A stretch of DNA of 64,000 nt from a virus: the IMG/VR virus record IMGVR_UViG_3300048587_000983, one strand, 5' to 3'. The notes under the pieces are model-generated. The model saw only the letters and a list, made by a program, of their open reading frames with translations, had not been told where the DNA came from and ran no database searches. Made by a program: the position numbers and the translations under genes. Shown piece after piece: positions 8,315 through 54,731 of the stretch; the first letter of the stretch is position 1; each line of letters opens with the position of its first letter.

Positions 8315-8469
8315 CGTGGAAGCAGATCGAGGAGATGAAACTTATGGTCGGCCGCGAGGACAACGTGACCAAGCTCGCCCACATGCTCAAGATCATGCAG
8401 GAGCTTCTGGGCCGTGAGATCAAGGTCACAGCACCGGAAGAGGAGACGGTCGATGACAGCACCCTATGA
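8245..8469 (+). CDS. hypothetical protein
   Basis: 74-aa ORF, SD GGAGAGG, overlaps the rnhB 3' end. Confidence 0.45.
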   Translation: MDFKTSILSSLTALQEPYTKGSVTWKQIEEMKLMVGREDNVTKLAHMLKIMQELLGREIKVTAPEEETVDDSTL

Positions 8470-9407: not shown

Positions 9408-9410
9408 GTC

Positions 9411-9644: not shown

Positions 9645-9669
9645 GCCTACTTACCGTGGAGTTACCGTG

Positions 9670-10083: not shown

Positions 10084-10086
10084 GAA

Positions 10087-10371
10087 TTATTCCTTCGAGT
10101 AAGCCTCGATCTCAAAGGGTATCCGGCGATAGGCCTCGTCGTGATTCCGGTAGCGAATGAGGTTTGCGAAATAATCCTTGAGGTAGATCACGTAGAACAT
10201 GAAAATTCCGTGTCGATCCATTTGGGCTTGATGGACGAGCTCGTGACGAATCACCCTTCGCGGGAGCTCGCCCTTTTTATAGCCGGTCAGCATCCACCTT
10301 CCAAGAACCATGGCCGCGTAGTTTTTCATGGGCCAGAATCGGAAAATCCACGAGTTATAGATGATCTTCAT
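10087..10371 (-). CDS. HExxH zincin-like small metallopeptidase (DUF4157-like)
   Basis: RHELVHQAQ and PFEIEAY motifs. Confidence 0.7.
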   Translation of the reverse strand: MKIIYNSWIFRFWPMKNYAAMVLGRWMLTGYKKGELPRRVIRHELVHQAQMDRHGIFMFYVIYLKDYFANLIRYRNHDEAYRRIPFEIEAYSKE

Positions 10372-10562
10372 GGCGTCCCTCCGCGGATCTTATCGGAGGA
10401 AACGGGCGCGGGTAAAGCTTTGGCGCGTTTTGCCGAAAGGGGCGGGGGAGACGGCCAGCTCCATGTACCTCCTTCACTGCAAGCGAAGAGGTCCCCCTGA
10501 AAAGAGCGGCGTTTCCTGGAGGCCGGGGGTTTTTCGGAGCCTCGTAGCACCCGGCCTTTCAA
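10368..10562 (-). CDS. small hypothetical protein
   Basis: Start and stop both overlap the neighbouring genes (TTGA and ATGA coupling). Confidence 0.45.
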   Translation of the reverse strand: MKGRVLRGSEKPPASRKRRSFQGDLFACSEGGTWSWPSPPPLSAKRAKALPAPVSSDKIRGGTP

Positions 10563-10834
10563 TCCCTTCGGCCAGCGCCGGCGACGTTCATGTGAAATTT
10601 AAAGCCATAGCGGGCACAGATCGCCCCACAAAGAATACGCAGCGATTCTATGTTGCGCCCCTTGATGCCTATGACCTTGCCCCGATCCGAGGGCGCGGTA
10701 TCCACCGTGAAGGCGACGGTCTTCTCCGAGCAGATAAACTCAATCGAAACTTCCGACGGGTGGTCCAGAAGCTGCCGAAAAAGGGGAGCTATGACGTCAT
10801 CGTGCAGGTATCGGGACAATGTCCGGGTGTCCAT
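10559..10834 (-). CDS. khpA: KH-domain RNA-binding protein (KhpA/UPF0109-like)
   Basis: 91 aa; DRGKVIGIKGRNIESLRIL with GxxG loop; ATG 10834 chosen over the 11209 start of the ORF track. Confidence 0.85.
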   Translation of the reverse strand: MDTRTLSRYLHDDVIAPLFRQLLDHPSEVSIEFICSEKTVAFTVDTAPSDRGKVIGIKGRNIESLRILCGAICARYGFKFHMNVAGAGRRD

Positions 10835-11651
10835 AGGCAATCGCTCCAATGGTGACGGTGAATCCGGCGGCGCTATGGTGCCCGCCTCCACCGAAGGCTT
10901 CGGCGATAGCGGCGACGTTAAACCCCTTTTCGGAGCGAAGGGAATAAGTTCGCAGCCACGTCCTGTCAGCCGTCTCCGTATCGTAGTAGACCACCGAAAA
11001 ATCGCTGTCAGGAAACTTTTCGAGAAGGGCATGACCGATCTCCGACCGGTATAGCGGGCTGTTGACTGCCGGAACTCTATGACCTTTGATTTCAAGATGG
11101 CCGCTCCTTTCGGTGAGAAACCGCACGCTCTCGTTGACGACAGACAACTGGATTGCGCCGATCTCTGAGAGTGTGGAGGTGTCGTGCATGTTCCGCTTCC
11201 AGACCTCAAAGTCCTCAGAGATTGACCGGAGCGCTGTGGTTATCTCCCGCGTCTCAAACATCTGAAACTTCCAGAGGTCTCTGTCCTGGATATGACGCAG
11301 GAGCTTTGGCGTATGCCTGCCAGGGTGAAAGTATTCCCAGGCCATGACCGCGCCGGACTTGTCGGGGTTGAAGTGGCAAAAGTCGAGCCCTTCCAAGTCC
11401 GCTTTGGCCGTCTTATGGTGGTCGAGCACCGTAATCTTGAGCCGCGTCACCTCGCGTAGAAGAATGTCACGCTTGAAGCTGAAGTCGAGAACAAAGACCT
11501 CATCCCCGGTCTCACACATATCAAAAGGCGCATCGCCTTCATCGTAGCGACAGGCCCTGTACATGGCGCCATAACCGAACTTTTCCCAGGCCGCGTAGGC
11601 AGCCCCATAGCCATCGAGACAGTCGGCGTGATAAAAAATCCATGTTGTCAT
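10797..11651 (-). CDS. DHH/DHHA1 family phosphoesterase
   Basis: YHADCLDG, LDFSF, LDHH, IQDRDLW, GGGGHHSAAGF. Confidence 0.92.
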   Translation of the reverse strand: MTTWIFYHADCLDGYGAAYAAWEKFGYGAMYRACRYDEGDAPFDMCETGDEVFVLDFSFKRDILLREVTRLKITVLDHHKTAKADLEGLDFCHFNPDKSGAVMAWEYFHPGRHTPKLLRHIQDRDLWKFQMFETREITTALRSISEDFEVWKRNMHDTSTLSEIGAIQLSVVNESVRFLTERSGHLEIKGHRVPAVNSPLYRSEIGHALLEKFPDSDFSVVYYDTETADRTWLRTYSLRSEKGFNVAAIAEAFGGGGHHSAAGFTVTIGAIAYGHPDIVPIPAR

Positions 11652-11893
11652 TCGACTTCATCCTCATCATCCTTGCGGCGTGTGACCACCCAGTGTGTGG
11701 TAACCTCGGCCCTCAGGGTGTAGCCCGTTTTTTTGCCCGTGGCCTTTTCGAGGACTGTGACCTCGAACTCATCGTCGTCCATCGCGTCGTCAGTGAGAAC
11801 GGTCTCCGCGTAACGGCTCGCCGCACCGTAGGCTGTGCCCGCCTGTATCGTCCGCGACTCAAGACCCTCGCCTGATACAATAAATTCAGCCAT
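11648..11893 (-). CDS. acidic hypothetical protein
   Basis: 81-aa ORF coupled to the DHH gene (ATGA overlap). Confidence 0.6.
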   Translation of the reverse strand: MAEFIVSGEGLESRTIQAGTAYGAASRYAETVLTDDAMDDDEFEVTVLEKATGKKTGYTLRAEVTTHWVVTRRKDDEDEVE

Positions 11894-11895
11894 GT

Positions 11896-12225
11896 CTACC
11901 CTTTTGCGTCTGGTTTTTTGGAATTGTAGTCGAGAAGGCCGCGCGCGACAACAAAGAGAAAGTAGCCCAAAAACCCGGCTGTCACAGTTTTCATGGCGGG
12001 TTTCGCCAGCGTGATAACAAGGAGCGCCGTAACAAAGCCGAAGAACGCGCCCTCGACAAAGGCGTTAAGAGTGCGGTCGCGCTCCTTCAGCCTGTAGGCC
12101 TTTTTTGAGACCCGAATGATCCGCTCCTTTTTGGCTTTCGCTTCAGCGGAGCGTGCAAAAACGCTGGAAATGGAGGTGAACCTCCGCACGGGCGTCGAGC
12201 GTGTCACTGGCCCAAAGGATCTCAT
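11896..12225 (-). CDS. membrane protein
   Basis: Two hydrophobic segments in the C-terminal half; ATG 12225 overlaps the upstream stop. Confidence 0.6.
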   Translation of the reverse strand: MRSFGPVTRSTPVRRFTSISSVFARSAEAKAKKERIIRVSKKAYRLKERDRTLNAFVEGAFFGFVTALLVITLAKPAMKTVTAGFLGYFLFVVARGLLDYNSKKPDAKG

Positions 12226-12461
12226 TCCTCTTTCTCCCTCGCACCACCAGCCTTCTTGAGGTGGACAGTGACCTCCAATGTCTCCGGGCAGACCTCCACC
12301 CAGTCGACTTCCAGGTCTTTCACCGGCAGACCGTCGAGCGTATTTTCCGTCGCCCCGCATAGCCAATCGCGGACCTCGTCATTCAGCTCTCCAACAAGAC
12401 CCCCCAGGCGTTCGGCGATAGCCTCCGCCACTTTTTTTACCAAATCCTCATCGGCACTCAT
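12222..12461 (-). CDS. hypothetical protein
   Basis: 79-aa acidic ORF in a coupled run. Confidence 0.55.
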   Translation of the reverse strand: MSADEDLVKKVAEAIAERLGGLVGELNDEVRDWLCGATENTLDGLPVKDLEVDWVEVCPETLEVTVHLKKAGGAREKEE

Positions 12462-12900
12462 CGCCACTTCCTTTGTCCGAAGGGGAAACGACCGGCACGG
12501 CAAACGTGACGAGAATCTCATCCTTCTGCGCATCCACGGTTTCTATTCGGTAGTCCTTGCTGAAACCTGCGAGGGTCTTCTTTAAGCGCCCTAAAAAGTC
12601 CCCCATGTCTGTGCGCCTCTCGGCTGGTGCCTCCAGCGGGGGAGACAGGCCAAGCGTGGAGTATTCGTAGGCTTTAAGGTGCAAAGGATCGAAACTATGA
12701 ATGCCTTTTTTGCTTCTGTGGATCACTATGGTGTCGAGCGGCGAATAGCATGGTTCGGAAGGATCAATCTTTCTAATTTTACGAAACCTGTAGGCCTCCC
12801 ACAGTCCGGTGGAGCAGTTGGCCCAGCCCCCGCTTTCCAGAATAAACTCCGCAAAACGCTCGGCCGCCTCCTTGCTGATCTGCACAAAGCCCATTAGCAA
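12448..12900 (-). CDS. hypothetical protein
   Basis: 150-aa ORF in a coupled run. Confidence 0.6.
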   Translation of the reverse strand: MLMGFVQISKEAAERFAEFILESGGWANCSTGLWEAYRFRKIRKIDPSEPCYSPLDTIVIHRSKKGIHSFDPLHLKAYEYSTLGLSPPLEAPAERRTDMGDFLGRLKKTLAGFSKDYRIETVDAQKDEILVTFAVPVVSPSDKGSGDECR

Positions 12901-13199
12901 GGACCCCCCTTGTAGCGCACATGAAACGCAAAAGCCGACCAGGCGTCAAAGAGTGGTCGAAACTCGTTGCGGATCGTGCAGCTCCCGTCATCCTCCTTTT
13001 GGACAACAAGGTCCATCCGGGGAATACCGGCCTTGTTCTCAGGATTCATGACGCGAATCAGTCGATGAATGATGGGGTCCTCGACCGGACTCGACGCTGC
13101 CCAGCCTCCAAGGGCCACGAGCCATGCGCAGAAAAGATCGGCGCTTTGCCGTTCGGTGAAGAAGACGGGTTCAGCCAGCTGCATTTTTTCGCTCCACAA
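12894..13199 (-). CDS. hypothetical protein
   Basis: 101-aa ORF in a coupled run. Confidence 0.55.
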   Translation of the reverse strand: MWSEKMQLAEPVFFTERQSADLFCAWLVALGGWAASSPVEDPIIHRLIRVMNPENKAGIPRMDLVVQKEDDGSCTIRNEFRPLFDAWSAFAFHVRYKGGPC

Positions 13200-13467
13200 T
13201 ATGACTTCTTATGTCAAGGCCGCAAAAGGGGCAGAAGTTGGCGACGATGCCCTTTTTCTGAAACTCCCCGAGCTTGATTCGGATAAAAGACATCGACATC
13301 TCACCCGTCTGAAGGTTCATATATGTATCGAGGAAAAACCCTTTCCCCCTGGGTGAGCCTGGAGCCTGTTCCACGATTCGGCTGAGGCCCGCGCACGGCC
13401 TTAAAAAGCTGCCTTCTATTTTGCAGGGGTAGTGCCCCTTCAGATCCTCGACTATGACTTTTGCCAT
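13171..13467 (-). CDS. zinc-ribbon hypothetical protein
   Basis: C..C and NFCPFCG motif typical of small phage proteins. Confidence 0.6.
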   Translation of the reverse strand: MAKVIVEDLKGHYPCKIEGSFLRPCAGLSRIVEQAPGSPRGKGFFLDTYMNLQTGEMSMSFIRIKLGEFQKKGIVANFCPFCGLDIRSHIVERKNAAG

Positions 13468-13772
13468 TTTTTTCGATGCTCCCTTAGGGCTAGTTCCCTT
13501 GCCGCCTCTTCAATTCGTGCTGGTATCTGGAGTGCCTTTAATGGTTGAAACAGCTCCTCACGCAAAAGTCTACTCTTTTGCGCAGAGAGCCTCAGCTCCT
13601 CGCCAGCGCGCGGCAGCGCAATACCTTCGGGAGTCCTTGCCTGACAGATTTTTTGCTCATATTCCTCAAGCTGGTCATAATAGGACAGCCAGGCCTGAAA
13701 AGCTTTTTTAAAATTCGGGTCCGGTCGGTTGCATACACCTAAATGCCGTCCTCCAGCCATTTCCTCTTTCAT
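13452..13772 (-). CDS. hypothetical protein
   Basis: Helical charged ORF; start moved to ATG 13772 to avoid overlap with the divergent gene. Confidence 0.5.
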   Translation of the reverse strand: MKEEMAGGRHLGVCNRPDPNFKKAFQAWLSYYDQLEEYEQKICQARTPEGIALPRAGEELRLSAQKSRLLREELFQPLKALQIPARIEEAARELALREHRKKWQKS

Positions 13773-38068: not shown

Positions 38069-40138
38069 TCAACCCGGCGCAATTTCCTGGGCCGACCTAA
38101 GCTTTTCAAGACCGTCGACCACCTCGATCAGCCTGTGCATCGACGTGCTGGCCGCCTCCTCGGGGATCTCTTTGAGCCCGATGCGGCTGGCGAGCAAACA
38201 GCTTGCAAGGCAGGAAATTGCAGCTTTCAGTTGTGGAATCTTTCCAATGAACTTAGCAATATTGTCAGGATTTACAAAGTTTAAAGCTAAAAGAGCGTCA
38301 ACCGTCTGCGCGTTGTCGATGTAAGAGGCCTCTTTCAAGAGGTCCCGGCGCAGAAGCGCGGCCACCTTTTCAGCCTTGTCGCGCAAGGGTTTTTTCGCAG
38401 CCAGCTTCTCCGAAGCAAGAGGCGGCGACGCAAGACCGTAGACCTCTGCGCGGCCGCGAACCTTTGCCTCCTTTATAACGCTGGCAATTTTCTCCCGACC
38501 GCAGCCGAGCGAGGCCAGAAGAAAACCTGCCTTTGCCTCGGAAAGAAGCGACTGGTCCCAGCCGATGGCCTGGGCATATTTCTGTGCGCCCTTGATCGAA
38601 AACTGTCCGTAGCCGGTCGATATCACATGAAGAGGAAGACCTTTTGGATTCTCTTCGGCTTCCTTGATCGCGTAGGATTCGAGCGTATCCGACACCGGGC
38701 CAAAGCTCTGCATGGGGACCCACTTCATGTTTCTCGGAAGCGTATGGTAGCCGTTCATCTCGGGCGTGATGCGGTGAAGCTCCATGGAGCCGTTGGTCCG
38801 GAGTTTGATCGGGCGGCCCATAAGATCGGCGCAAACCATTCGGTAGCCATAGGGCTCGGCCTCGATGACCCGGATCGTGACCGGGATTGTGGCCAGAGCG
38901 TGCGAAGCGTCAGGCTGATAGACGAACGTTCCCGTCTGCCCGACCTTTGGCGTTTCGTCGGGCATCCGAAAGTTGGTGTTCTTCACACGAACACCGGCGA
39001 TGCGCGGCTGGATGGTCGACATCGTTTTGCCGACAAAGATTTTGAGGTCAACCGGCTTCATATCAAAGTCGATGACTTTTGGAATAACCCAGCCCTCAAC
39101 AGTCACACCGGTTTTTGTTTTAACCCTGAAGGAGTCGAAGGTGGTCGCCTCCTCGACTATGGTTTGATCCTCCTGAGCCAGAATCACGTTGTCCTTGCCG
39201 CTCGGAAGGAGAAGAAACTTCTCTCCGTTCTGATCGACCTCATTCATCGTGTCTTCGACGTGATCGGAAATTTTTGAGACGAGCGAGTAGCAGTCATCGC
39301 GCGAGACAGGCCCCACAAGGCTTGGCGAGAAGACCTCGTCGCTATTTGAAAGGATCGAATACTTATCCGGACTCTCGCGGCGCAGCATGACGATGCTGTT
39401 TGGAATGAGCTTATCAGCACCCTGGCGGAACTCGTTCATGTTCACGCCCTGAAGATTGGCGATCTTTTTGATAAGCTTTGCGTGACCATGCTTGTGAAAA
39501 CCCGTCAGGTACTCGGGTTTTTTATTGAAAAAATCGAGGATTTTATCCCCATCCCCGACAGTCGGCGCGATCTCATCGATGAGAGGGTAGGAGGCGGTCT
39601 TCATGCCCTCCGGGATTTTCGAGACGATCGAAAGGACCTCGCCAATCGGATCCTCTTTTGCCCGCTCGGAGGCATAGGCGTAGCGGCCAAGCGAGGGCGG
39701 GTAGATTGCATTCCAGAGGTTCGCATCCTCGAAGCGCCCGAGGCCACCGTAGGTCGGAAACTCTTCGATCTTTTGAAAAGCCCCGGTTGTCATGAAGATT
39801 TCCTGGAACATCTGCGGGGTGAGAGGTAAAAGCTTTTGTTTGGCGATCATGACATCAAGGGGATAGAGCATGAAGTCTTTGACAATGATCGGAACGACGG
39901 CTGCCTTGTCGGTCGTGTTGATGATGATGGCGCCGGTCGCAGTTCCGTTCTCTTCGTCTTTTTTCTGAAACTTGACCATGACGCTCATTTCGCTCGCCAT
40001 GGGAACGCGCTCTTTAAACTTTTGGATAATTTCCTCGGGCCACTGCTCGAGATCGTTGCCGAGATGGGTGAGGCTTACATCCTGCACATCGGGCGCGTCG
40101 ATAAAAAGGTTCGCGGGCATGGTCATAGCTGTCTCCAA
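38069..40138 (-). CDS. large putative head/core protein rich in K-x-A motifs
   Basis: 689-aa ORF in the structural module, SD GGAG; KTAS, KYAQ, KIAS, KLAA, KVAA, KEAS. Confidence 0.8.
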   Translation of the reverse strand: METAMTMPANLFIDAPDVQDVSLTHLGNDLEQWPEEIIQKFKERVPMASEMSVMVKFQKKDEENGTATGAIIINTTDKAAVVPIIVKDFMLYPLDVMIAKQKLLPLTPQMFQEIFMTTGAFQKIEEFPTYGGLGRFEDANLWNAIYPPSLGRYAYASERAKEDPIGEVLSIVSKIPEGMKTASYPLIDEIAPTVGDGDKILDFFNKKPEYLTGFHKHGHAKLIKKIANLQGVNMNEFRQGADKLIPNSIVMLRRESPDKYSILSNSDEVFSPSLVGPVSRDDCYSLVSKISDHVEDTMNEVDQNGEKFLLLPSGKDNVILAQEDQTIVEEATTFDSFRVKTKTGVTVEGWVIPKVIDFDMKPVDLKIFVGKTMSTIQPRIAGVRVKNTNFRMPDETPKVGQTGTFVYQPDASHALATIPVTIRVIEAEPYGYRMVCADLMGRPIKLRTNGSMELHRITPEMNGYHTLPRNMKWVPMQSFGPVSDTLESYAIKEAEENPKGLPLHVISTGYGQFSIKGAQKYAQAIGWDQSLLSEAKAGFLLASLGCGREKIASVIKEAKVRGRAEVYGLASPPLASEKLAAKKPLRDKAEKVAALLRRDLLKEASYIDNAQTVDALLALNFVNPDNIAKFIGKIPQLKAAISCLASCLLASRIGLKEIPEEAASTSMHRLIEVVDGLEKLRSAQEIAPG

Positions 40139-43479: not shown

Positions 43480-43661
43480 CCCCTTCTTTTTTCAAAGCCT
43501 CGCCAGAAAGCTTTTTTCTCTTCGTGATCTTCATGGAGACCGACCTTGGCTTCGAGCTTTTGCTCTTTCGGGCTTTCCGCAGCTTCCTGCTCCTTTGATT
43601 CCCGCCGCTCATGGCTCAGAAGGAGCGCTTTCAGATCTTTCTTCGACACATCGTCTCTCAT
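43476..43661 (-). CDS. small charged protein with C-terminal FWxGFEKR motif
   Basis: ATGA overlap with the SNF2 stop; ends AFWRGFEKRRG. Confidence 0.65.
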   Translation of the reverse strand: MRDDVSKKDLKALLLSHERRESKEQEAAESPKEQKLEAKVGLHEDHEEKKAFWRGFEKRRG

Positions 43662-45088
43662 GGCTTTTCGCTTCCTTTTTCACGGAGAATATTCAAAAAC
43701 TGGTCGTTCAGAGCATCCTTTTGCGCCGAGAGCATGTCGAGGTACTCATCCACACCAGAGTCCGCTTTCCTGCGTAAAACTCTCTGCAGGAAGGTTTTTG
43801 GAACGGTCGAATGGAACTTCTGAACATGGACATTCCTCTCTTCCGGCGGAAGGTGCTCATGGCTTTTAAAGCGGACGCCCCGGCCCTCAGCCTGCTCCAG
43901 CCGTGAGGTGTTCCAGTGCGGTTCCAAAAGCTGCATCAATTTTGTGCCTTTGAGGTCCAGGCCTTGAGCGCCTGCGCCAGAGATGAGGAGGGCCTTTGCT
44001 CGTCCGGCATTATAATCCTCCACCGCTTGCTTTCGTTTCGCATCAGAGAGTGTCCCGTCAAATACAGCGTGTGGAACACCAAGATTGGCAAGATGTCGCG
44101 CATATTCCTTCACTCCGGAATCGAGGTAGTTTGAGTAGACGACCGCCTTGAAGTTAGGGTCTTTTTGCATACGTTTTTGGAACTCGTCGATCGCCCGCTG
44201 AATTTTTGGAGAAGTCTCCGTTCCCCCAAACCCTCTCGTGCTATTTGATATTTGCCGCGGTCCGGAAAGGAAGGAATTGAGCGACTTGCTCTCCTGTTTG
44301 TTTGGCGGCAAGCCTCGACGAATCTTATAACGAAGCCCAGGACCTGCCTTGTCGAGGACGAAGTCGTAATATTTCATCTGCTCGGCATTCATCGGGACCT
44401 GGATCGTCTCGCGGCTCACAGCGGGAAAGTTCTCCCGCGCCGGCGCGTGATAGTCCACATAGCCCTTCACGAGATCAGCGAAGCGCTCGGGGTTTTTGAT
44501 TTTGTACTCGACCCCTGGTTTTGCCCCATGAAAGATTCGGGCCAGGAGTCCGGGGCTTTTCATGACCTCTGCTATGAAGGCCTTGTCGAAGGCCTTGGGG
44601 TCGGACGGTATTTTCGTATCGCCACGCACCATGGCCATAAGAGGGCCGATCTCGTGCGGGTAGTTGCGGATAGGAGTGCCTGTGAGAAGAATCCGCTTGT
44701 CGTAATCGCGCGCCTTTTGAATCATCTCCTGAGTCCGCTTGCTGTCGGTGCGACCGAGCATGTGGGCCTCATCGACCACAAGAGCGTGGCCCGTAGGTGG
44801 CGTCTTCACGGCCTTTTCGTAGCTCATGATGTTCGGCTTGTGGCCAGTCGTATGCTTTTGTACCTCTTTCGCATAGTTCTGACGAAGAGCCGCTGGTACA
44901 ACGACATCGGTTTCGTCACCTTGCGTCGCGGCCAGGGAGGTGAGCGTCTTGCCGCTTCCAAGGCCGTGATAGACAAGAACGCCCGGCTTTTTACCGAGCC
45001 TTTGCTGAACGCGGATCTGCTGCGGCTCCAGCTTGGTTGTGGTTTTTAGTTTGGCTCTCTTCTCAAAACCCAGCCAGAAGCTGTGCAT
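43658..45088 (-). CDS. SNF2/SWI2-like superfamily 2 helicase/translocase with FWxGFEK leader (476 aa)
   Basis: HGLGSGKT, VVDEAH, LTGTP, GAQGLDL, EPHWN..EQAEGRGVR; SD GGAGGAG before ATG 45088. Confidence 0.92.
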   Translation of the reverse strand: MHSFWLGFEKRAKLKTTTKLEPQQIRVQQRLGKKPGVLVYHGLGSGKTLTSLAATQGDETDVVVPAALRQNYAKEVQKHTTGHKPNIMSYEKAVKTPPTGHALVVDEAHMLGRTDSKRTQEMIQKARDYDKRILLTGTPIRNYPHEIGPLMAMVRGDTKIPSDPKAFDKAFIAEVMKSPGLLARIFHGAKPGVEYKIKNPERFADLVKGYVDYHAPARENFPAVSRETIQVPMNAEQMKYYDFVLDKAGPGLRYKIRRGLPPNKQESKSLNSFLSGPRQISNSTRGFGGTETSPKIQRAIDEFQKRMQKDPNFKAVVYSNYLDSGVKEYARHLANLGVPHAVFDGTLSDAKRKQAVEDYNAGRAKALLISGAGAQGLDLKGTKLMQLLEPHWNTSRLEQAEGRGVRFKSHEHLPPEERNVHVQKFHSTVPKTFLQRVLRRKADSGVDEYLDMLSAQKDALNDQFLNILREKGSEKP

Positions 45089-45110: not shown

Positions 45111-45491
45111 TCAAATGGTGCCAAGCATAAGCTCTTCGTCTTCGCCCGTTCGCGCAAGATAGCGGAGGTATTCCTTCTGTTCTTTTGGAGGCATGGCGAG
45201 AACTCTTTTGGCTTCCTCGATACCCCGCTTCTGGGCGATCGCCCTAAGGACCCCGGCCAGCCCGCCGACAGCCAAGCCGGCCGCACCTCCGGCAAAAGCC
45301 CCAGGGACAGCGCGGTCCGCGGCACCGAAAAGAGCCCCCGTAACCCCGCCTAAACCAGCTCCGACGAGACCTCCTTTTAGTTTCGACAGCGGTTTTTTCT
45401 GCGCTGATTCTTCGAGCTCTTTTTTAAGAACACGAGCCTCGTAATCGTAGTCGTAAGCCCGCTTTTCAAAGCCGTTCCAAAATGCATGCAT
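45111..45491 (-). CDS. glycine-zipper membrane protein with FWxGFEK leader
   Basis: MHAFWNGFEKRA; GGLVGAGLGGVTGALFG and GAFAGGAAGLAVGGLAG; TGATG coupling to the RNAP gene. Confidence 0.8.
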   Translation of the reverse strand: MHAFWNGFEKRAYDYDYEARVLKKELEESAQKKPLSKLKGGLVGAGLGGVTGALFGAADRAVPGAFAGGAAGLAVGGLAGVLRAIAQKRGIEEAKRVLAMPPKEQKEYLRYLARTGEDEELMLGTI

Positions 45492-48400
45492 CAGTATTTC
45501 CCTTCCTTGCCTTTGCCAAACTCCGCTCCGTAGGCGAACGCCGGGATCGGATGGTAGTCACTCGTATTCGTGCTCCAGCCTTGCGAGGCCCCGGTCGTCA
45601 GCGCGCGCTGCAGCTGCTGATAGCCGAGAGCAGCCATCCAGTCTTTTCTCAAAAGAGGCAGATTGCGCACGGATTTGAGAAGTGGCGCATGAACTATGGG
45701 ATCCTTTTGAATCTTAACCGTTTTCACCGTGGCCGAAAGCCGGGAGATGTCCTCAGGGGTCATCTCGTGCCCCGCGCGAAGGCCTCCGGCAGACTCGGCG
45801 AGCTTAAAGCCGAGGCTCTCTTCGATCGGCACGTCCTGGGCGAGGTTTTTGTTGTGGTGCTGGGCCACCGTATAGGGGATCACATCCCCCGGAAGATAAC
45901 CCGTCCCTTTGGGAGCGTTCTGCACCTGGGTCGTATTGCCCATGGACCGCACAACGGTCTCAAAAATCTTTTTGTGGAGATTGACCCCCTGGCCCTCGTA
46001 GCTCTTTTTGAGCTCGGTGGCGAGGTAGTCCTGGGCGGCGTCCATCCCGAGGTGTTTCACGAGATCCTGGGGCTTGATAGGCCCCTCAGAAAGCGGCTCA
46101 CCACGCCTGACCTGCGAGCCCACCTGCACGCGAAGAGGTTTGCCCTGAGGAACATGCGCCTTTGTGTCTTTACCGATCGTCACGACAAAGCCGCCACCAA
46201 GACCCTTTTCGATCTTTGTCACCCGGCCATCGACCGGGGCAAGTGGCGCAGCGCCTGCGACCTGCTTTGGCATCTGAAGAAGCTGATCGATCCGGGCGTA
46301 GCCCTGAACGTCGGCCCCTGTGCCGGCAGCCCCGCCCGTGTGGAAAGTTCGCATCACCATCTGCACCAGCGGCTCACTTATCGTCTGGCCTGCCTTGGCA
46401 CCGATGTTCTCGCCTATCTCAGGCATGTGACCGTGCTCGTCGAGGCCATAGCACTTCGCGCATGTGCCTTTTGGGGCAAGACAGCGAAGTGGCGAGCGGA
46501 CCTTGATGCTTGAAAGACCGCGTTTTTTCAGCTCGTTGACCACCTTCGTGTCAACCAGGGTATTGTGAGAAAAGCCGCCCTGATCGCCCGCGAGGAAGCG
46601 GTCGTAGACATCGGTGTCCTCGATCTTGTGAGCGACCCCTTCTTTCGTTCCGCAGTCCTCTTTTGATATGACGTTTCCGATTGTGGTCGCCATGATGTCT
46701 TTTGAAAAGGCCCCGGGCAGCGAGGTCTGGATCGCCCTATCCATCATGCCTCGACGAGCCCCGTACATGCTGATCCAGTAATCGCCGACGTCCAGGCCTT
46801 CGGCGTAGGATTTTTTTATTGGGGTCGGGATAATGCGGCCCTTTTCGTCGCTCATAAAAAGAGGGGTCGCCACGATCTGCCTGAGCTGGCTTGAGTTGCC
46901 GCGCGCCCCTGAGCGGACCATATCGAAAAGCGGATTGTCTTTCCCTTCGAGCTTTTTCTCGATGACCTTGTCGATAAGGTTCGCCGCGCGCTTGTTGACG
47001 TCCATAAGCCGGGCCTGGTCGGTGGTCGCCGCAGCGGCTCTGGATGCACTCTCGACCACCCTGTCACGGATCGTCCCAAACTGCGCAATGTCTTCAAGAC
47101 CAAGTGTAAAGCCTCTTTCGTATGCGTGCTTTTCACCTTCGGCCTTGAGGTTGGCGACGATACTCGCATAGTCCTGCGGCGGCAGCTCTTTTGAAAGCTT
47201 CATGACAAGAGCCCCGGTCGCCTTTTTATCAAGGACACCCGTGACCTTATATTTCTCAGGCAGAAAGCGATTGAGGCTCTGGCGGCCAGCCGGCGTTTTT
47301 GAAAGGTAGAAAAGCCCAATCTGCGCCTCCTGGGAGGGCTGAATCATAAGCTTGCCCGACCCCGGCTGGAAGAGATTGCGCGAGGGCTTCAGCCGCTCGG
47401 CCTCTTTGTTGGCCTCATCTCCAATCGGCACGTGAACCGTCATCGTATCGCCGTCGAAGTCAGCATTGAATCCTTGAACGATAAGAGGCGGGATCTTGAT
47501 AGCCTTGCCGTCGGTGATCTTGGGCTTAAATGCCATGATCGAGAACTTATGCAGCGAAGGGGCTCTATTCAAAAGAACATGCCGCTGCTTCATGACATTA
47601 TCGAGTGCTCGGCGCGCAGTCTGCGTTTTCTTCTTGATGGCCTCTTTCGCGTCGAGGGGGTTCAGTCCGAAGTTGCGAAGCTCGCGCACGACGAAAGGTT
47701 CAAAGAGCGACCACGCCATAGGCTCGGGCATCGCCATTTCATCGACGCCAAGCGAGGGCTCAGGGATGATCGTCCCGCGGCCGACATAGTCCTGCTGCTT
47801 TGAGAGGAGCTTGCTGATAAAGAAGCCCTCTTTTGGCTGACCACCCGTGCCGCCCTTGATCTCGGCTATAAGGCCGTCCTTCGGCTTTCCTTTCATGGTC
47901 GTATTCGTAAGACCGACGACACCCTTCACGTGCTTATAAAGATCGGCGCGGACATCAGCCTTCGCATCCTCCGAAAGCAGGTCCATGACGGGAAGGTTCA
48001 TCACCGTGTTGACGACGCCCACGTTCTGATAAAGATCGTTCACGGGGGATGTCGCCACCTCGCCCGTTGGCAGTGGGTAGATGGGTCTATAGATGGGAGG
48101 CAGCACCGGAAGCTTTCTTCGGATGTAGGCCTCTTCAGGACGAAGACCTGTCTGCTTCAGCGCCGATAGGTAGCGAAGCTTTTTGTTCATGTCGTCAAGC
48201 TTCGAGCCAGTCGCATTCTGCGCTTTTCGCGTAAGGTTCTTAAGCTCCGCGTCGACGTCCATTTTCTTTAAAAGTGTTTCGATTCCCGCGCCGCCGGTGA
48301 CGCCCGTATGCTCGGTCGTGAGGCTGCCGTCAGGTTTAACGAAAAGCTTTCCTGCAACGATCTCGTCAAATTTCCCCGAGAGCCCGAGAAGTTTTCTCGC

Positions 48401-51400
48401 TGCCTCTTCAAACGCCGGGTTTACGACGGGCTCCTTCAGCTCAAGATGGCCCCACTTGGTTCCCTTGAGGCCGCCGAAGATCTTGCCATCGAAAAACCCG
48501 CCCTTGACGGGCTGAAAGTCCTTGGCGTGATAGAAGTGCGCCTTCTGCACGCCGCCGCTGCTCATCTTTTCGATCTGGGCGTCCGTGAGAGGGGCAAGCG
48601 TGAGTTTGGTCCCCTCCTTTTGGACATCGATGCCGGCCCCCTTCAGATAGGCCATGAATTTGTCGAATACAAACGGGGCCTTGGGCGGCGGCAGCTGCTG
48701 GCCGCTACGAAGTGCCTTCCAGTATTCGTCGTTGACGTTCGCTTTCAGCGAGCTCATCTCACGAAGGTTTGCCCGCGCCCCGTGGGAGAGGAGCGAATAC
48801 ATCGTCAGAAGGTCGAGCGATTTTGAGCCTTCCTCGCCGCCTGTTTTCAGGGGCTGAAGGTTACTGTCATACGGCATCCCAGGTCCGCCCTGGCGAACCG
48901 AGAAGTTGCCGGCCGATTGCTTGAAGAGCTTCAGGATGTATGGGTTTCCGACGTGCACCTGACCGAGGCTTTTGCCAGTCGAAGGATCAAAAAGTTCTTC
49001 CTTGTCAGACACCCCGTTTTCTTTAAGAAACTTTCGAGTTGTGCCAAGATAGTTTTGTCCTGTGAAGTTTTGAACCTTGTATGGAGCCCCAGCTTTGAGA
49101 GCCGCCTTGCCTGCAGCAGACTCGTAGATCTGACCAATGTTGATTCGTCCAATAACTCCGTGAGGATTGAGGAGGATATCGACAGCTCCGCCTCCAGCAT
49201 CCTTCGGCATCTGTCCATCGGGGAGGATTTTTGTGATGATGCCCTTGTTCCCCATGCGTCCCGAGAGCTTGTCGCCGATCTTTGCGCGCTCCTCGGTTCG
49301 TATGAAGACCGTGATCGTTCCCCCAACTTTAACCACTTCAGTGACAACGCCTTCGTCCTCGCCCGTCCAGCGAACGCTGGCATCCCGCGGTCTATCCGCG
49401 AGGGTTTTGGAGATAACCGCGATCTGAGCATCCCGATTCTTCCTCTCCATTGCTGCGATGATAATATCACCCGAGCGGACGCGCGAACCTTTTTTGATAA
49501 CGCCATCAGAACCAATTTTTGAGGCGTTGTCCGGACTCAGGAGCGCCGGGTAGTTCAGCCGGAAAAGCCCCTTGTCGAGAGTTGACTGGGGTGTTACCGC
49601 GTAGGATTTTTTGTGTATGTGCTCGCTCGTGAGCTTCTCAGCCGCAGACTCCGAGATTACAATCCCGTCCTCGAAGTTGTAGCCCTTGTAGGGAATATAT
49701 GCGGCGCGCAGGTTTGTGCCGAGCGCCAGCGTCCCGCCTTTTGTAAAATTGCTCTCCGCGAGGAGCTGATCCTTTTTCACCCGCTCCCCGACCTTGACCA
49801 CGGGCGTATGATGGAGAAAGCTTTTCCGGTTGAGCGAGAAGTTATTATAGAGGCTAATCTTCCGATCACCTCCAGCCGTCGTAAGAACGATCTCGTCCTC
49901 GCCAACCTTTTTTACAGTGCCTTCTTCAGGGGCACGAATCGCCACCTGGCGCCCGACGACCTCCTCCATGGATTGGCCGGTTGAAGTTCCGACTTGAACA
50001 AGCGGCGCCTCCCGGTGCTTAAGGCCGATGGCCTGCTCCAGCATTTTCGAGGCCATCATCGCCCGGTTCCCCTGGTTTGAGGGAAGAAAGGGGACAAGGT
50101 TTGTCGATGGAGAGAAAAGGGCCTCGGCGGTTGGCGTGAAGTAATCCACCTTGGAGACGGGCACCATAACGATCTGCCCGCGGTAGAGGGCCTTGACCGT
50201 ATCGCCCTTTTGCCCCGGAAAAGCCACGTACTTCTCCCAGCTTTCAATTGGCGTGAGAGCCTCAGGCTGCCCCGTCTTTGCATTTTTCAGGATGGCCTTA
50301 AGATTCTTGCCGTCCTTGATCACGCCCATTGGAAGGTGGAGGTTGACGCCTATTCGTTCTGATTCAGGCGTGTGGACGGGGTCTATGAAACCGTAATGCG
50401 AAGGGTGGACCTGCCGCATCTCGTCTTTGATTGCATGGCGCGATGTGATCCCGCCCGAACCCATGAAAGTCGCCTTGTGTCCGCCGGATAGCATCTCAAG
50501 GGGATTTGTCTGCTCGGGCGTTGCCGCCTTGTCGTCCTGCGTGAAAAACCCCTCGACCGTAGACGAGAACGCGGCCGGGTTTACGAGCTGGCTTATCTTC
50601 ACACGGCGCGGGTTATCGACCTGTCTTCGGATCTTGCGCTCCAGCTCTGTGCGGTTCTTTTCAAGACGCTCGGCTATGAAATCCTCCACGCTATGGATTT
50701 CTTTAAACGCGAGGGAGTCCCTGTCCACGGGTTCTTTTTTTCCAAGCTGCACATCAAGAAGGTTTTTGGACGCGGCCAAGAGCATTGGCCCATCGACCCT
50801 CTCAAACGAAGTCCCAAGCACCAGTTTCGTCGTATCCGCCGGCAGAGACGTTTTTCCAAAATACTCTCTGAGACCATCTTTTTTAACCCCGAACGCGGTT
50901 TCAGCACGCTGCACCGCTTTCGGATCAGTATTTTTGTTGGCCGCCTCTAGTTTGGAACCCCAGGTTTGAGCCATGAGTACAGGAGAGACGCCGAGATGAG
51001 TAAGAATAGGATAAAGAGGAATATTCGTCTGACCCCCGCCGATTTTCTGGATGGTGAAGACACCACTCCTCTCATCAAACGCGAGGTCAAAGTTCCTTCC
51101 TCGTGCCAGGTTAACTTGGGTTTTGAGTTGTCCATTTTGCTTCCTTATCGTGTAGACGCCAGAGCGCAGGCGAAGCTGGTTGTTCACCTGATACTCGTTG
51201 CCGGCGACGATATACGACGAGCGCGCCGTTGCCGTTGGAAGAAGAAAGAGCCTCACTTTCTCCGCGCGGTCAATCACTTTTCCTGTCGAATTTTCGACGA
51301 GTGACAGCGAGGCGTACACAGGAACCCCCCATGTCCCCTCACGAAGCTTTGTCTTTGCCTGGCCGGAAAAGTCGTCCGGAGCGGCTTTGTCGTCGGTCCA

Positions 51401-51517
51401 GACGTTATCAAGCTTCATCGTGCGGATTCGCCCAGTCACCGGAAAAATCGATCGGACGGCATTTACCGCAGCACTCTTCACCGATTCAGTTTGCTGTTTG
51501 GCGTCAAAATTTCGCAT
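45491..51517 (-). CDS. rpoBC: single-chain two-barrel RNA polymerase (fused beta-beta'), 2008 aa
   Basis: beta motifs HPSHYG.IDP..TPE, GYNFEDG, GDKLSGRMGNKG, NPHG..GRINIGQ; beta' motifs LLNRAPSLH, FNADFDGD (47447-47467), bridge helix GARRG, CAKCYG, trigger loop MRTFH.GG; no stop between the halves. Confidence 0.97.
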   Translation of the reverse strand: MRNFDAKQQTESVKSAAVNAVRSIFPVTGRIRTMKLDNVWTDDKAAPDDFSGQAKTKLREGTWGVPVYASLSLVENSTGKVIDRAEKVRLFLLPTATARSSYIVAGNEYQVNNQLRLRSGVYTIRKQNGQLKTQVNLARGRNFDLAFDERSGVFTIQKIGGGQTNIPLYPILTHLGVSPVLMAQTWGSKLEAANKNTDPKAVQRAETAFGVKKDGLREYFGKTSLPADTTKLVLGTSFERVDGPMLLAASKNLLDVQLGKKEPVDRDSLAFKEIHSVEDFIAERLEKNRTELERKIRRQVDNPRRVKISQLVNPAAFSSTVEGFFTQDDKAATPEQTNPLEMLSGGHKATFMGSGGITSRHAIKDEMRQVHPSHYGFIDPVHTPESERIGVNLHLPMGVIKDGKNLKAILKNAKTGQPEALTPIESWEKYVAFPGQKGDTVKALYRGQIVMVPVSKVDYFTPTAEALFSPSTNLVPFLPSNQGNRAMMASKMLEQAIGLKHREAPLVQVGTSTGQSMEEVVGRQVAIRAPEEGTVKKVGEDEIVLTTAGGDRKISLYNNFSLNRKSFLHHTPVVKVGERVKKDQLLAESNFTKGGTLALGTNLRAAYIPYKGYNFEDGIVISESAAEKLTSEHIHKKSYAVTPQSTLDKGLFRLNYPALLSPDNASKIGSDGVIKKGSRVRSGDIIIAAMERKNRDAQIAVISKTLADRPRDASVRWTGEDEGVVTEVVKVGGTITVFIRTEERAKIGDKLSGRMGNKGIITKILPDGQMPKDAGGGAVDILLNPHGVIGRINIGQIYESAAGKAALKAGAPYKVQNFTGQNYLGTTRKFLKENGVSDKEELFDPSTGKSLGQVHVGNPYILKLFKQSAGNFSVRQGGPGMPYDSNLQPLKTGGEEGSKSLDLLTMYSLLSHGARANLREMSSLKANVNDEYWKALRSGQQLPPPKAPFVFDKFMAYLKGAGIDVQKEGTKLTLAPLTDAQIEKMSSGGVQKAHFYHAKDFQPVKGGFFDGKIFGGLKGTKWGHLELKEPVVNPAFEEAARKLLGLSGKFDEIVAGKLFVKPDGSLTTEHTGVTGGAGIETLLKKMDVDAELKNLTRKAQNATGSKLDDMNKKLRYLSALKQTGLRPEEAYIRRKLPVLPPIYRPIYPLPTGEVATSPVNDLYQNVGVVNTVMNLPVMDLLSEDAKADVRADLYKHVKGVVGLTNTTMKGKPKDGLIAEIKGGTGGQPKEGFFISKLLSKQQDYVGRGTIIPEPSLGVDEMAMPEPMAWSLFEPFVVRELRNFGLNPLDAKEAIKKKTQTARRALDNVMKQRHVLLNRAPSLHKFSIMAFKPKITDGKAIKIPPLIVQGFNADFDGDTMTVHVPIGDEANKEAERLKPSRNLFQPGSGKLMIQPSQEAQIGLFYLSKTPAGRQSLNRFLPEKYKVTGVLDKKATGALVMKLSKELPPQDYASIVANLKAEGEKHAYERGFTLGLEDIAQFGTIRDRVVESASRAAAATTDQARLMDVNKRAANLIDKVIEKKLEGKDNPLFDMVRSGARGNSSQLRQIVATPLFMSDEKGRIIPTPIKKSYAEGLDVGDYWISMYGARRGMMDRAIQTSLPGAFSKDIMATTIGNVISKEDCGTKEGVAHKIEDTDVYDRFLAGDQGGFSHNTLVDTKVVNELKKRGLSSIKVRSPLRCLAPKGTCAKCYGLDEHGHMPEIGENIGAKAGQTISEPLVQMVMRTFHTGGAAGTGADVQGYARIDQLLQMPKQVAGAAPLAPVDGRVTKIEKGLGGGFVVTIGKDTKAHVPQGKPLRVQVGSQVRRGEPLSEGPIKPQDLVKHLGMDAAQDYLATELKKSYEGQGVNLHKKIFETVVRSMGNTTQVQNAPKGTGYLPGDVIPYTVAQHHNKNLAQDVPIEESLGFKLAESAGGLRAGHEMTPEDISRLSATVKTVKIQKDPIVHAPLLKSVRNLPLLRKDWMAALGYQQLQRALTTGASQGWSTNTSDYHPIPAFAYGAEFGKGKEGKY

Positions 51518-51668
51518 AGAAGTTGATATAAGCCTCCTGGCGGAGCGTTTAACTTTTCACTTTGAAAGGGGTTCTATAGACAAACTAGAGTAGTTTTCGT
51601 GAAAAATCACCTTTTCTTTCCGATGAGTTGTTTCTGAATGAACTGGCTTTACACAAGGAAGGCAAGCC

Positions 51669-52199
51669 ATGTCGATTAACGCTGAATTTGAAGCTGAAGT
51701 TTCGTCTGACCACGATAGTCCTTTTTCAAAAGCGCCCGGTGGAAACCCTTTCGGGGGTTTTGCGGGAGAGACGGGTGGAAACCCATTCCGCGATTCCCCC
51801 GGGGCGCAGCAGCGGAAATCGCCAAGCGGCGGATCGAAGCCGAACTTTGTGGTACGCGCGTGGCGAGTTGTGAAGGACTTCTTCGTCGGTATCGGAAGGG
51901 CTGTATTTTCACGACAGTTCTGGGTTGATTTTATAGCAACAGCGCTCCGTGATGCGCTTGCCGCTCTTGGGTATTCGATCGGCATGCGAATGGTCAAGAA
52001 AGCTGCGGCGACCGGTGACATCATCTTCCGTGACAAGAGCGGAATGGTGTCAGAGACTGAAGCAGCTGCGCAGGGTACGGCGTATGCGAGCCAGCAGTCC
52101 TGGCCGCCAAGAGCAAGGCCATCAGGTGGTTCCGTCCAGGACAATCTCATGGCTTACCCCGCTGACAGGCCGTACGCACAACGGTCGTTTGTAAACTGA
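51669..52199 (+). CDS. hypothetical protein with GGNPF repeats and amphipathic/hydrophobic helices
   Basis: 176-aa ORF divergent from the RNAP gene, SD AAGGAAGG. Confidence 0.65.
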   Translation: MSINAEFEAEVSSDHDSPFSKAPGGNPFGGFAGETGGNPFRDSPGAQQRKSPSGGSKPNFVVRAWRVVKDFFVGIGRAVFSRQFWVDFIATALRDALAALGYSIGMRMVKKAAATGDIIFRDKSGMVSETEAAAQGTAYASQQSWPPRARPSGGSVQDNLMAYPADRPYAQRSFVN

Positions 52200-52216
52200 G
52201 AAGGTTTGCGCATCGG

Positions 52217-52240
52217 TGCGCCCTGGGATCCCAGGGCGCA
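52217..52240. terminator. 24-bp perfect palindrome between convergent genes (probable bidirectional terminator)
   Basis: TGCGCCCTGGGATCCCAGGGCGCA followed by TTCTCATTTTTTT on +. Confidence 0.7.
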
Positions 52241-52264
52241 TTCTCATTTTTTTAGCTATGCCCA

Positions 52265-52507: not shown

Positions 52508-52701
52508 GTCACCACCAGCTCCAAGTGATCCTGAATCGAGGTGATGCGCCCTGTGTCCGGGTCCATCTCCCGATTCGATATTTTTTCCTTGATGCGGTCG
52601 AGGATCTGCGCGTTTGGGTTATTCAGGATCGCCTCGTACTCTGCGCAGTCCTCTTTGTCATTGAGGTTGAACCGCTTTACAAATTTTCTTGTCGTATACA
52701 T
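52483..52701 (-). CDS. hypothetical protein
   Basis: 72-aa ORF, TAATG coupling to the portal gene. Confidence 0.65.
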   Translation of the reverse strand: MYTTRKFVKRFNLNDKEDCAEYEAILNNPNAQILDRIKEKISNREMDPDTGRITSIQDHLELVVTWQERTLL

Positions 52702-54731
52702 TAAACCGCTCCCTGCCGCCGCGGAACCTTCTGCTCAGGCAAAGGGTCCATGCCTACGCCGCCACCACTGGGCGCTGGCGTGGGAGAGCCTGCACCACCT
52801 TGCATCGGCGCGGCTTCGCCCGAGCCCTCAGCGCGCAGCTGATTGAGACGGGTTTCGATACGCTGACCAACCTCGGGCATTTTTTGTTTCACCTCGGAGA
52901 GCGTAAGGGCGGCTTCACCGGGCGAAAGGCTCATCAACTGGCGAGCCCAGGAATCGACTTTCGAGTCGATTTGCTGACCAAGAGCCTTGTCTTCCTTGCC
53001 GCCGGCAGCCGCTCCACCTGCTGTGCCCGGCAGGCCTTGAGCCGTAGCAGCGCCGGGTGCGCCCCCTCCAGCTCCGCCTCCAGGGCCGGCAGGTCCGCCT
53101 GCAGAGGGGTCACCGCCGCCGGGTGCATTTGGATCAGTTGGCTGATCGAGGGGACCAGGAATCCCAAGCCTCTGAGCCCGCTCCTGTGCAGCCACCTGGG
53201 CCTTCTCGGAAAGCTCCTGAAGTGTCTGCTGATAATTAAACTGAATGAGCGAGGCCTCACCCTGCGAGCGTGCACCTGATTTGCTTTGTAGATCCATGAT
53301 GTAGTTCTGGACATGCTGCTCTTCGATAAGTTTTTTGGTTTCCGACTCGTAGTCGTAGCCGAGTTCTGTGAGAAGAGTTTGGTCGCTGATCTTCCGCTGA
53401 GCGTTAAGCCCGATGAGCTGCTGATTCCTTTGAATATCGTCAGCCATACGAAAGTCGGAGAACCGGATATCCTTTACGTCAGAGAGGTTGAGCCATGTGC
53501 GCAGCTTGTCTTTCAGCCAAAGAGTAAAATCAAGAAGCTGGCTTCTATTCTGGATAAAGTCGTTCTCGAGCGTCCGAAGCGAAACGCTCGACCCTGTCCA
53601 GTTGAGACCACCAAAGAGGAACTCCTGCGGAAGCCCGAGCCCACCGACAACTGTCTGCGTGATGTAGTTGATTTCAGGCGCGAGGAGGAGCGCTTTTCCG
53701 TCACCACCAAGTCGCCCAAAGCCAATCGGGATAGGGATAACACCTTTGAAGTTGGGATCGCGGCGGTGCTTTGTGATGACGTTTTCAACCTGCTGCCGCC
53801 AGCTGGCAAGGTCCGTATGAATGTAGGGGTCCTGCTGCGCGTTTGGAAGCGGGTAGATCATATCGAAGGGGACGATATGCTCCATCGCAATCGCTTCCTG
53901 CGCACGCCTGAGGGTATAGAGGTAATACATATCCTTCAGGACGTGGATGATTGCAGGCTTGCCCCAGCCCTGGTCCTGCTCAGCCAGTGTCGGAGCTTTC
54001 AGGTGTTTGATGTTATCTGAGTTGAAGCGAATCATCCGGCGGTTTTTAAGAGCTTCAAGGACGATGATGGGAATGTCCTCGATGATGTCCTTGTCGCCGC
54101 GAAGGATGGCATTACGAAGCTTTCCGGGCACCGAGTACATATAGATGTAGCGGCCCGTATATTCGTTGAACTTGATGTGGATATTTTCAGGGTTCCAGCG
54201 GACTATCCGGATCCCTTTTCTACTTCGATAAGGGACGTCTTTTACGGTCACCTGCCCCGTGTGGTTGCAGCGTGAACAGGTCCCCGAGAACTGATAGTCG
54301 GCCCCGCGAAACGTCCAGTCCCATTGGCGAATAGGCTGGCTGTTGCGACATTCCTTACAGACGAGAAACCGCGTGAAAGGGAAGTGGATACTGACGAACG
54401 CGTTGCCGTAAGTATGGTAGTCGAGGTTAATCTCCATGAGCTTGTCTTTGATGAAAAGCTCTTTGTTGAGAATCTTGTCCCAGACGTTACGGTTGCTCTC
54501 CTGGTCGTCCTCGATGATAAGGTCTGTGATCGGGTACCGCGAAACCTTCTTCATCGCAGCCCCGATGAGGGGGCTGTTGTAGTAGTAGTAGGTGCACCAG
54601 CGGAAAAGCTCCTTGATCGTCGGCGGCATGTACTGCTGCGCGAGGTCAAAGAACTGGTTTGGATACCGCTGGCCCCTCATGTCTCCGAGGGCAAGCGAGG
54701 GCTCGGCCAGGCGTTCCTGTGGGTTGGTCAT
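52701..54731 (-). CDS. portal protein (putative) with zinc-ribbon insertion and Gly/Pro-rich tail
   Basis: Y.NSPLIG, YHTYGNAF, GLPQEFLFGG, ISDQTLL.ELG; CKEC..CSRC insertion; structural module context. Confidence 0.75.
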   Translation of the reverse strand: MTNPQERLAEPSLALGDMRGQRYPNQFFDLAQQYMPPTIKELFRWCTYYYYNSPLIGAAMKKVSRYPITDLIIEDDQESNRNVWDKILNKELFIKDKLMEINLDYHTYGNAFVSIHFPFTRFLVCKECRNSQPIRQWDWTFRGADYQFSGTCSRCNHTGQVTVKDVPYRSRKGIRIVRWNPENIHIKFNEYTGRYIYMYSVPGKLRNAILRGDKDIIEDIPIIVLEALKNRRMIRFNSDNIKHLKAPTLAEQDQGWGKPAIIHVLKDMYYLYTLRRAQEAIAMEHIVPFDMIYPLPNAQQDPYIHTDLASWRQQVENVITKHRRDPNFKGVIPIPIGFGRLGGDGKALLLAPEINYITQTVVGGLGLPQEFLFGGLNWTGSSVSLRTLENDFIQNRSQLLDFTLWLKDKLRTWLNLSDVKDIRFSDFRMADDIQRNQQLIGLNAQRKISDQTLLTELGYDYESETKKLIEEQHVQNYIMDLQSKSGARSQGEASLIQFNYQQTLQELSEKAQVAAQERAQRLGIPGPLDQPTDPNAPGGGDPSAGGPAGPGGGAGGGAPGAATAQGLPGTAGGAAAGGKEDKALGQQIDSKVDSWARQLMSLSPGEAALTLSEVKQKMPEVGQRIETRLNQLRAEGSGEAAPMQGGAGSPTPAPSGGGVGMDPLPEQKVPRRQGAV

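Follow-up and report, generated by a model that had tools for sequence, protein, structure and literature searches.

A predicted single-chain beta-beta' RNA polymerase, joined without a linker and conserved in a large clade of tailed phages

Analysis of a 64,000-nucleotide (nt) stretch of IMG/VR record IMGVR_UViG_3300048587_000983 (hereafter the window), which covers about one third of the ~175–180 kb genome of an uncultured phage, revealed a gene (45491..51517, minus strand) encoding the counterparts of both large subunits found in bacterial RNA polymerase (RNAP), beta followed by beta', in one uninterrupted chain of 2008 amino acids (aa) plus stop. The original prediction, made from the DNA letters of the window, had described such an open reading frame (ORF) with motifs of both subunits, and this description stands: on the one chain, Pfam models Rpb2_3 and Rpb2_6 (scores of 2e-11 and 4e-56, respectively) are matched first, followed by Rpb1_1, Rpb1_2, Rpb1_4 and Rpb1_5 (residues 1088-1749; 1e-28 for Rpb1_2 and 1e-24 for Rpb1_5). 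The beta module (48620..51517, minus strand, residues 1-966) comprises the fork (Rpb2_3, 335-395) and the double-psi beta-barrel (DPBB) with the flap (Rpb2_6, 542-879), and contains the motifs GYNFED at residue 612 and GDKLSGRMGNKG at 748. The beta' module (45494..48619, minus strand, residues 967-2008) contains NADFDGD at residue 1351, the bridge helix, the trigger loop (MRTFHTGG) and a second zinc site with four Cys. All hallmarks of two-barrel RNAPs, namely the beta' DPBB with its Mg-binding Asp residues, the beta lysines, the bridge helix and the trigger loop, are present. Judged from these sequence features, the gene product is very likely a functional DNA-dependent RNA polymerase belonging to the cellular two-barrel type; this high confidence is the one attached to the explanation developed below as a whole, its demonstrated and its proposed steps taken together.

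The two modules are fused directly to each other. In an alignment of the window RNAP with 19 family members and with the beta and beta' chains of E. coli and S. aureus, query residues 966/967 (nt ~48620) mark the point where E. coli beta breaks off at residue ~1338 and beta' sets in at residue ~15 with nothing between them, and the join is therefore of zero length; missing at this point are the last few residues of beta and ~14 N-terminal residues of beta'. The junction (48587..48646, minus strand, residues 958-977, LKGAGID-VQKEGT-KLTLAPL) lies where it had been placed originally, but the linker of about six residues proposed there is not borne out by the E. coli alignment. No insertion or deletion occurs at the junction in any of the aligned family members. 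In the AlphaFold model of residues 1-1200, the junction forms two neighbouring strands (963-968 and 971-976) connected by a two-residue turn, with a predicted local distance difference test score (pLDDT) of ~80-92, which suggests that an inter-subunit strand pair was turned into a hairpin.

The identical 2008-aa protein is encoded on 11 independently assembled metagenome contigs, two of them (Ga0498926_0000133 and Ga0498917_0000246) 175,595 and 180,819 bp long, so the fusion is no assembly accident. RNAP relatives are encoded on 147 IMG/VR stretches, and one open frame spans the junction in 80 of the 81 loci examined, those of phages Arash and D69 included; the remaining locus is cut by its contig end. 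In the protein database, where the family is present under automatic names, it forms more than 120 clusters of 1990-2040 aa with 45-85% identity, in addition to longer intein-bearing forms. The fusion is shown to be ancient and to have become fixed in a large clade of tailed phages with genomes of ~160-200 kb.

None of the candidates for an unfused relative held up: P0121 is cut by its contig start, P0133 turned out to be a normal bacterial rpoC, a frameshift accounts for L091, and the only interruptions in L092 are in-frame TGA codons. The RNAP gene of the latter (Logan SRR24302422_8201, positions 7461-13544) aligns to query residues 2-2007 in one frame with four in-frame TGA codons and a terminal TAA; with TGA read as sense it becomes a single 2028-aa ORF, from which the gene caller had made four "subunits". 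Since this one frame is broken only by TGA and then ends in TAA, the genetic code of this relative is probably recoded. Inserts of 315-514 aa, all in frame, were observed in the RNAP genes of L009, L036, L044, L046, L055-L057, L060, L066, L067, L069, L081 and L094, at recurring positions (query residues ~386, 606, 750-790, 1350-1364 and 1724) beside the most conserved catalytic motifs, and many long family members carry intein and LAGLIDADG domains according to Pfam.

Comparison of 41 family members revealed that the equivalents of beta K1065 and K1073, beta' D460, D462 and D464, and trigger-loop H936 are invariant (41/41), and that the second zinc site is retained in 37. The beta' zinc-binding domain (ZBD) is absent from all 41; at its former site in the window RNAP (48437..48496, minus strand), FFDGKIFGG directly joins KWGHLEL, and ~32 aa corresponding to E. 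coli 68-99, with four Cys, are gone. Other segments lost relative to E. coli are the lineage-specific inserts (beta 220-360, 934-1045 and 1126-1179; beta' 947-1134), beta' 128-153 and 516-571, and both termini at the join, while ~354 residues are lost relative to S. aureus. The gap at beta' 516-571 is family-wide and coincides with a secondary split site (47249..47311, minus strand, residues ~1403-1423), at which the gene is cut in two in Arash, D69 and seven IMG/VR relatives. The flap tip is shortened and deviates from the bacterial consensus, and the clamp-helix residues R275, R278, R281 and E295, invariant in nine bacteria, are replaced by V, V, L and V, respectively. Because the rifampicin-pocket residues Q513, F514, H526, S531 and I572 are likewise replaced, the enzyme is probably insensitive to rifampicin. 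Structure prediction, proposed earlier as a check, gave models of both halves (residues 1-1200, pLDDT 82 and predicted template modelling score (pTM) 0.65; residues 880-2008, pLDDT 84 and pTM 0.80) that were matched by Foldseek to bacterial beta (E 4e-64) and beta' (E 1.5e-60) chains with template modelling (TM) scores of 0.64-0.78, the value for beta' being 0.78; a sequence search of the PDB retrieved bacterial beta' at E 1e-115. The earlier description of a compact, bacterial-like fused enzyme is thus fully backed by its domains, its unchanging catalytic residues, its fold and the family-wide conserved junction.

The phylogenetic tree constructed from 53 taxa and 1941 columns of beta and beta' (MAFFT, FastTree, and IQ-TREE under LG+F+G4 with SH-aLRT, a Shimodaira-Hasegawa-like approximate likelihood ratio test) placed fused and split family members, Arash and D69 among them, in one clade (support 1.0 in FastTree and 100 in IQ-TREE), the nine bacteria included (Gamma-, Alpha- and Deltaproteobacteria, Bacteroidota, Firmicutes and Mycoplasma; no archaea) in a separate clade (1.0/100), and three mReC-type enzymes, picked by size and gene layout rather than taken from the sequences of the original paper, in a third (0.97/95). 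The secondarily split members (Arash, D69 and the seven IMG/VR loci) form one clade with support of 99.6. The cultured phages Arash (gp206 and gp216; OQ632216) and Vibrio D69, D148 and D181 belong to the same clade as the window RNAP, with ~33-34% identity to it. These phages have genomes of ~180-187 kb and share the seamless beta-beta' join, the loss of the ZBD and the portal gene upstream; in Arash, an SNF2 helicase follows directly downstream of the RNAP. Unlike the unsplit window RNAP, their beta' is cut after the catalytic domain (query ~1405-1423), leaving two genes 0.6-4.8 kb apart. The Arash paper names the two products beta and beta' and makes no mention that gp206 holds beta together with the N-terminal half of beta' (PMC10585845). 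A megablast search of the window locus against 50,697 phage records gave no match. Contig Ga0498917_0000246, which encodes the identical RNAP, has the same size as the Arash record (180,819 bp), which we take to be a coincidence: the two share no megablast similarity and only 34% protein identity.

The enzymes of the mReC/Carin-5 type resemble the window RNAP in having compact beta and beta' chains (~900-1080 aa each) that align with bacterial ones, in occurring in large uncultured tailed phages and in branching deeply outside bacteria. However, Weinheimer and Aylward (2020; PMC7481178) list the mReC beta and beta' as different genes of two size classes, often both present on a contig, and in the mReC-type representatives beta' precedes beta, whereas the window RNAP is a single ORF with beta first. 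One mReC class and Carin-5 also retain the ZBD that the window family lacks. The same paper describes a gp23-type capsid (PF07068) and a large terminase (TerL) of PF03237; the TerL of the window and of all four complete relatives is of the PF05876 type, and none of the four has a PF07068 match. The window RNAP was therefore not filed under mReC: its single ORF, its gpA-type TerL and the lack of a gp23 match, together with a clade that appears separate from the three representatives chosen by size and layout, speak against membership in gene layout, virion markers and tree position. Two separate phage-type RNAP sets were observed on a 136-kb contig of a Hyphomicrobiales metagenome-assembled genome (MAG; G008:C5, L096 and L105), one with a beta' of 902 aa followed by a beta of 1018 aa and the other with a beta' of 1003 aa followed by a beta of 1380 aa; they match the two mReC size classes. 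Cobetia phage Carin-5 (L098) encodes sigma, beta' (1083 aa) and beta (927 aa) consecutively, and the order of beta' before beta, on this genome as on the MAG contig, is the reverse of the bacterial one.

The phiKZ/AR9 enzymes are likewise two-barrel RNAPs of phages, work without alpha, omega and sigma70, include one virion-packaged set and are genetically linked to an SNF2-type helicase; they consist, however, of 4-5 polypeptides, each genome has two sets of them, and their divergence from bacterial enzymes is far greater, whereas the window family has one chain and one set and resembles bacterial beta and beta' much more clearly. The crAss-like type (phi14:2 gp66), which is delivered with the DNA as a virion RNAP according to the same paper (PMC7481178), resembles the window RNAP in carrying both barrels on one large polypeptide. 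The crAss enzyme has no detectable match to COG beta/beta' models, while the window RNAP matches the Pfam Rpb1 and Rpb2 models. Among cellular enzymes, the RpoBC fusions of Helicobacter and Wolbachia, also beta then beta', are ~2800-2900 aa long, function with alpha2, omega and sigma, and are part of their respective bacterial lineages. The window RNAP has the same order but, at 2008 aa, is shorter, has neither the ZBD nor the sigma-contact residues and falls outside the sampled bacteria. What the original prediction stated about the phiKZ/AR9, crAss and Helicobacter/Wolbachia enzymes agrees with the literature. No description of a single-chain, bacterial-alignable beta-beta' phage RNAP was found by full-text literature search, subscription journals lying outside its coverage; what is new is the distinct, fixed single-chain architecture, phage-encoded RNAPs of cellular type being already known.

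The features of a bacterial alpha2-beta-beta'-omega enzyme with sigma are incomplete here, since alpha and omega genes, the ZBD and the clamp-helix patch for sigma region 2 are all missing. A domain search of the immediate neighbours and of 73 further ORFs of the window found no sigma, alpha or omega, as had been claimed earlier. In five complete or near-complete genomes of relatives (163-198 kb, three with terminal repeats), exactly one beta'-type gene is present per genome, with an open frame of 2072-2168 aa, and alpha (PF01000) and omega (PF01192) were found in none of the five, all 14 control genomes being positive. A small protein of the sigma70 family (180-192 aa) is encoded by three of the four complete relatives, at a great distance from the RNAP gene, and regions 2 and 4 were recognized in both relatives' sigmas scanned against Pfam; we take their motifs to be reminiscent of the FliA/sigma28 type. 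Two proteins annotated as sigma-like, with sigma70 domains, are encoded by Arash. As the relatives encode sigma70-family proteins elsewhere in their genomes, the enzyme need not be factor-independent. The relatives' sigma proteins match nothing in the window, and a metagenome scan with them did not place the contigs of the window phage among the 80 loci kept. The small sigma (L084, L085 and L086; loci L109-L188) has at least 258 matching metagenome stretches, many of them on contigs from soil metagenomes.

A portal-like protein of 676 aa (52701..54731, minus strand), homologous to the annotated portal gp204 of Arash (E 2e-78), is encoded upstream of the RNAP, and in each of the 61 loci with a detected portal gene the latter occupies this position on the same strand. 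Between the two, and divergent with a plus-strand 176-aa ORF, lies an AT-rich intergenic region of 151 nt (51518..51668), which probably holds the RNAP unit's own promoter. The RNAP gene is preceded by a good ribosome-binding site of its own (AGGAGG), and its stop codon runs into the start of the following gene (TGATG), which couples it translationally to a Gly-zipper protein of 126 aa (45111..45491, minus strand); an SNF2-family ATPase of 476 aa follows (43658..45088, minus strand), whose homolog in Arash (gp217) stands directly after the RNAP. Further downstream, a conserved protein of 689 aa (38069..40138, minus strand) lies on the same strand in 63/63 loci where it was found, and the intein-interrupted TerL of the gpA ATPase type (PF05876; 33359..36376, minus strand) does so in 44/44. 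The order of portal, RNAP and TerL is conserved, and lying within the region for head and packaging genes is thus a trait of the family. The original placement between portal and terminase holds for the portal; on the other side, however, the next genes are those of the Gly-zipper and SNF2 proteins, and TerL lies ~9 kb further downstream, beyond HU and SSB genes on the opposite strand. Its further claim, that the gene is embedded in the morphogenesis operon, does not seem to hold: with its own upstream region and ribosome-binding site, the RNAP gene looks like a transcription unit of its own rather than a part of the portal operon.

A motif M-[RH]-x-F-W-x-G-F-E-[KR]-[KR] was observed at the start of four unrelated proteins of the window (at 9670 on the plus strand and at 38060, 45088 and 45491 on the minus strand), which include the Gly-zipper protein, the SNF2 ATPase and a thioredoxin-like protein. 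This leader may be a shared targeting or processing signal.

The phage probably runs its own transcription enzyme and perhaps carries it in the particle. In the proposed scheme, the covalent join would replace the assembly platform otherwise provided by the alpha dimer, and the chain would fold into a core enzyme by itself. It would transcribe phage genes independently of the host polymerase, with promoters chosen by phage factors, such as the small sigma70-family proteins of the relatives, and not by host sigma70. Made late together with the head genes, the RNAP would be packed at least in part into virions and start the next infection. For packaging of the window RNAP itself we put the chance slightly above even, an estimate that draws on the conserved position between portal and TerL and on virion mass spectrometry of Arash, a distant relative. 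In Arash virions, Gp206 (beta and the N-terminal half of beta') gave the most spectra (3516), above the major capsid protein, and Gp216 (1210 spectra), the sigma Gp10 and the helicase Gp217 were likewise detected (PMC10585845).

Several points weigh against this scheme. The Arash preparation lists 116 of 272 proteins, ribonucleotide reductases included, and its authors allow for carry-over of abundant proteins (PMC10585845), for which reason the RNAP signal may itself be carry-over. The N-terminus of the window RNAP lacks the FWxGFEK leader; should this leader direct packaging, the RNAP does without it. No sigma was found in the window, and two of the five relatives gave no sigma match; K-mer enrichment and a sigma28-type consensus applied to the upstream regions of the window yielded no recurrent promoter motif above background. 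Independence from alpha is read from the absence of its gene, and host alpha may be used. The sampling of bacteria in the tree is limited.

A more elaborate version, which can be held only tentatively, is a self-contained system like that of poxviruses, in which the single-chain RNAP, free of alpha and omega, would be packed with a sigma-like factor and the SNF2 ATPase and would start early transcription from the injected DNA, newly made copies doing the rest; the join would allow the 220-kDa core to refold or function after ejection without an assembly platform.

The main rival to a packaged polymerase is a real enzyme that stays out of the virion, with host RNAP reading the early genes and the phage RNAP, together with a phage sigma, taking over the middle and late ones. 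The many non-structural enzymes in the Arash preparation speak for it, as do the sigma70-family proteins of the relatives, which are like those of many phages that redirect transcription, the intergenic region that uncouples the RNAP gene from the portal gene, and the absence from the RNAP of the leader borne by neighbouring proteins. However, in every locus examined the RNAP gene stands between portal and TerL on the same strand, and genes so placed are typically late; a polymerase for middle genes would therefore be made too late. The relatives have a single RNAP gene, the spectra of Arash Gp206 exceed those of the major capsid protein, and sigma70-like promoters are not enriched around the locus (11 observed versus 7.1 +/- 2.8 expected). 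On balance, this alternative is somewhat unlikely.

A main role outside gene expression, for example in making primers for the replication of phage DNA or in opening its origin, is suggested by the SNF2, HU, SSB and DNA polymerase A genes nearby, but is very improbable in view of the full-size elongation apparatus of bacterial type (bridge helix, trigger loop, clamp and flap) and the sigma factors carried by relatives; we know of no precedent for a dedicated replication role among beta/beta'-type enzymes, which also counts against it.

A cellular rpoBC recently captured, or a bacterial contig mistaken for phage, could be argued from the PDB, where both the nearest solved structures and the best sequence matches are bacterial. 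Identity to bacterial enzymes is, however, only ~26-32%, the nine bacteria exclude the family with support of 100 and long stems, relatives turned up solely on two phage-like MAG contigs among the 185,579 species genomes scanned, and portal, TerL and other phage genes surround the RNAP gene. Nesting within a host rpoBC, named earlier as a check, is contradicted by the position of the family outside the clade of sampled bacteria, and for this reason the window RNAP is, by its sequence, not a recent capture from any of them; this explanation is extremely improbable. That the fusion is an assembly or frameshift artefact of genes that are really separate can practically be dismissed, since the fragmentation of some relatives by gene callers traces to contig ends, frameshifts and in-frame TGA, and the identical product on 11 contigs, the single frame in 80 of 81 loci and the gap-free, conserved junction stand against it.

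A one-polypeptide core of 2008 residues is ~380 residues shorter than a compact Firmicute beta plus beta' and has no alpha or omega gene beside it; if the reading is true, no natural enzyme of this class that can still be aligned well with the model enzymes would be simpler. A single-chain RNAP would lend itself to studies of structure, folding and assembly, and might serve as a new tool enzyme. Although the ZBD and the sigma-contact residues are lost, many relatives have sigma70-family genes, which makes a rebuilding of sigma docking testable. Hundreds of contigs from a wide range of environments make this a large family, with the Arash and Vibrio phages as cultured members. It constitutes a third deep phage lineage of alignable beta/beta', besides the mReC and phiKZ-like ones, and bears on the debate over the origin of viral polymerases.

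At 51557-52199, between portal and RNAP, the plus-strand 176-aa ORF (51669-52199) is conserved in close relatives, and an overlapping minus-strand ORF of 197 aa is not. The 176-aa ORF is followed at 52215-52242 by a strong terminator-like hairpin of 12 pairs with a T-run.

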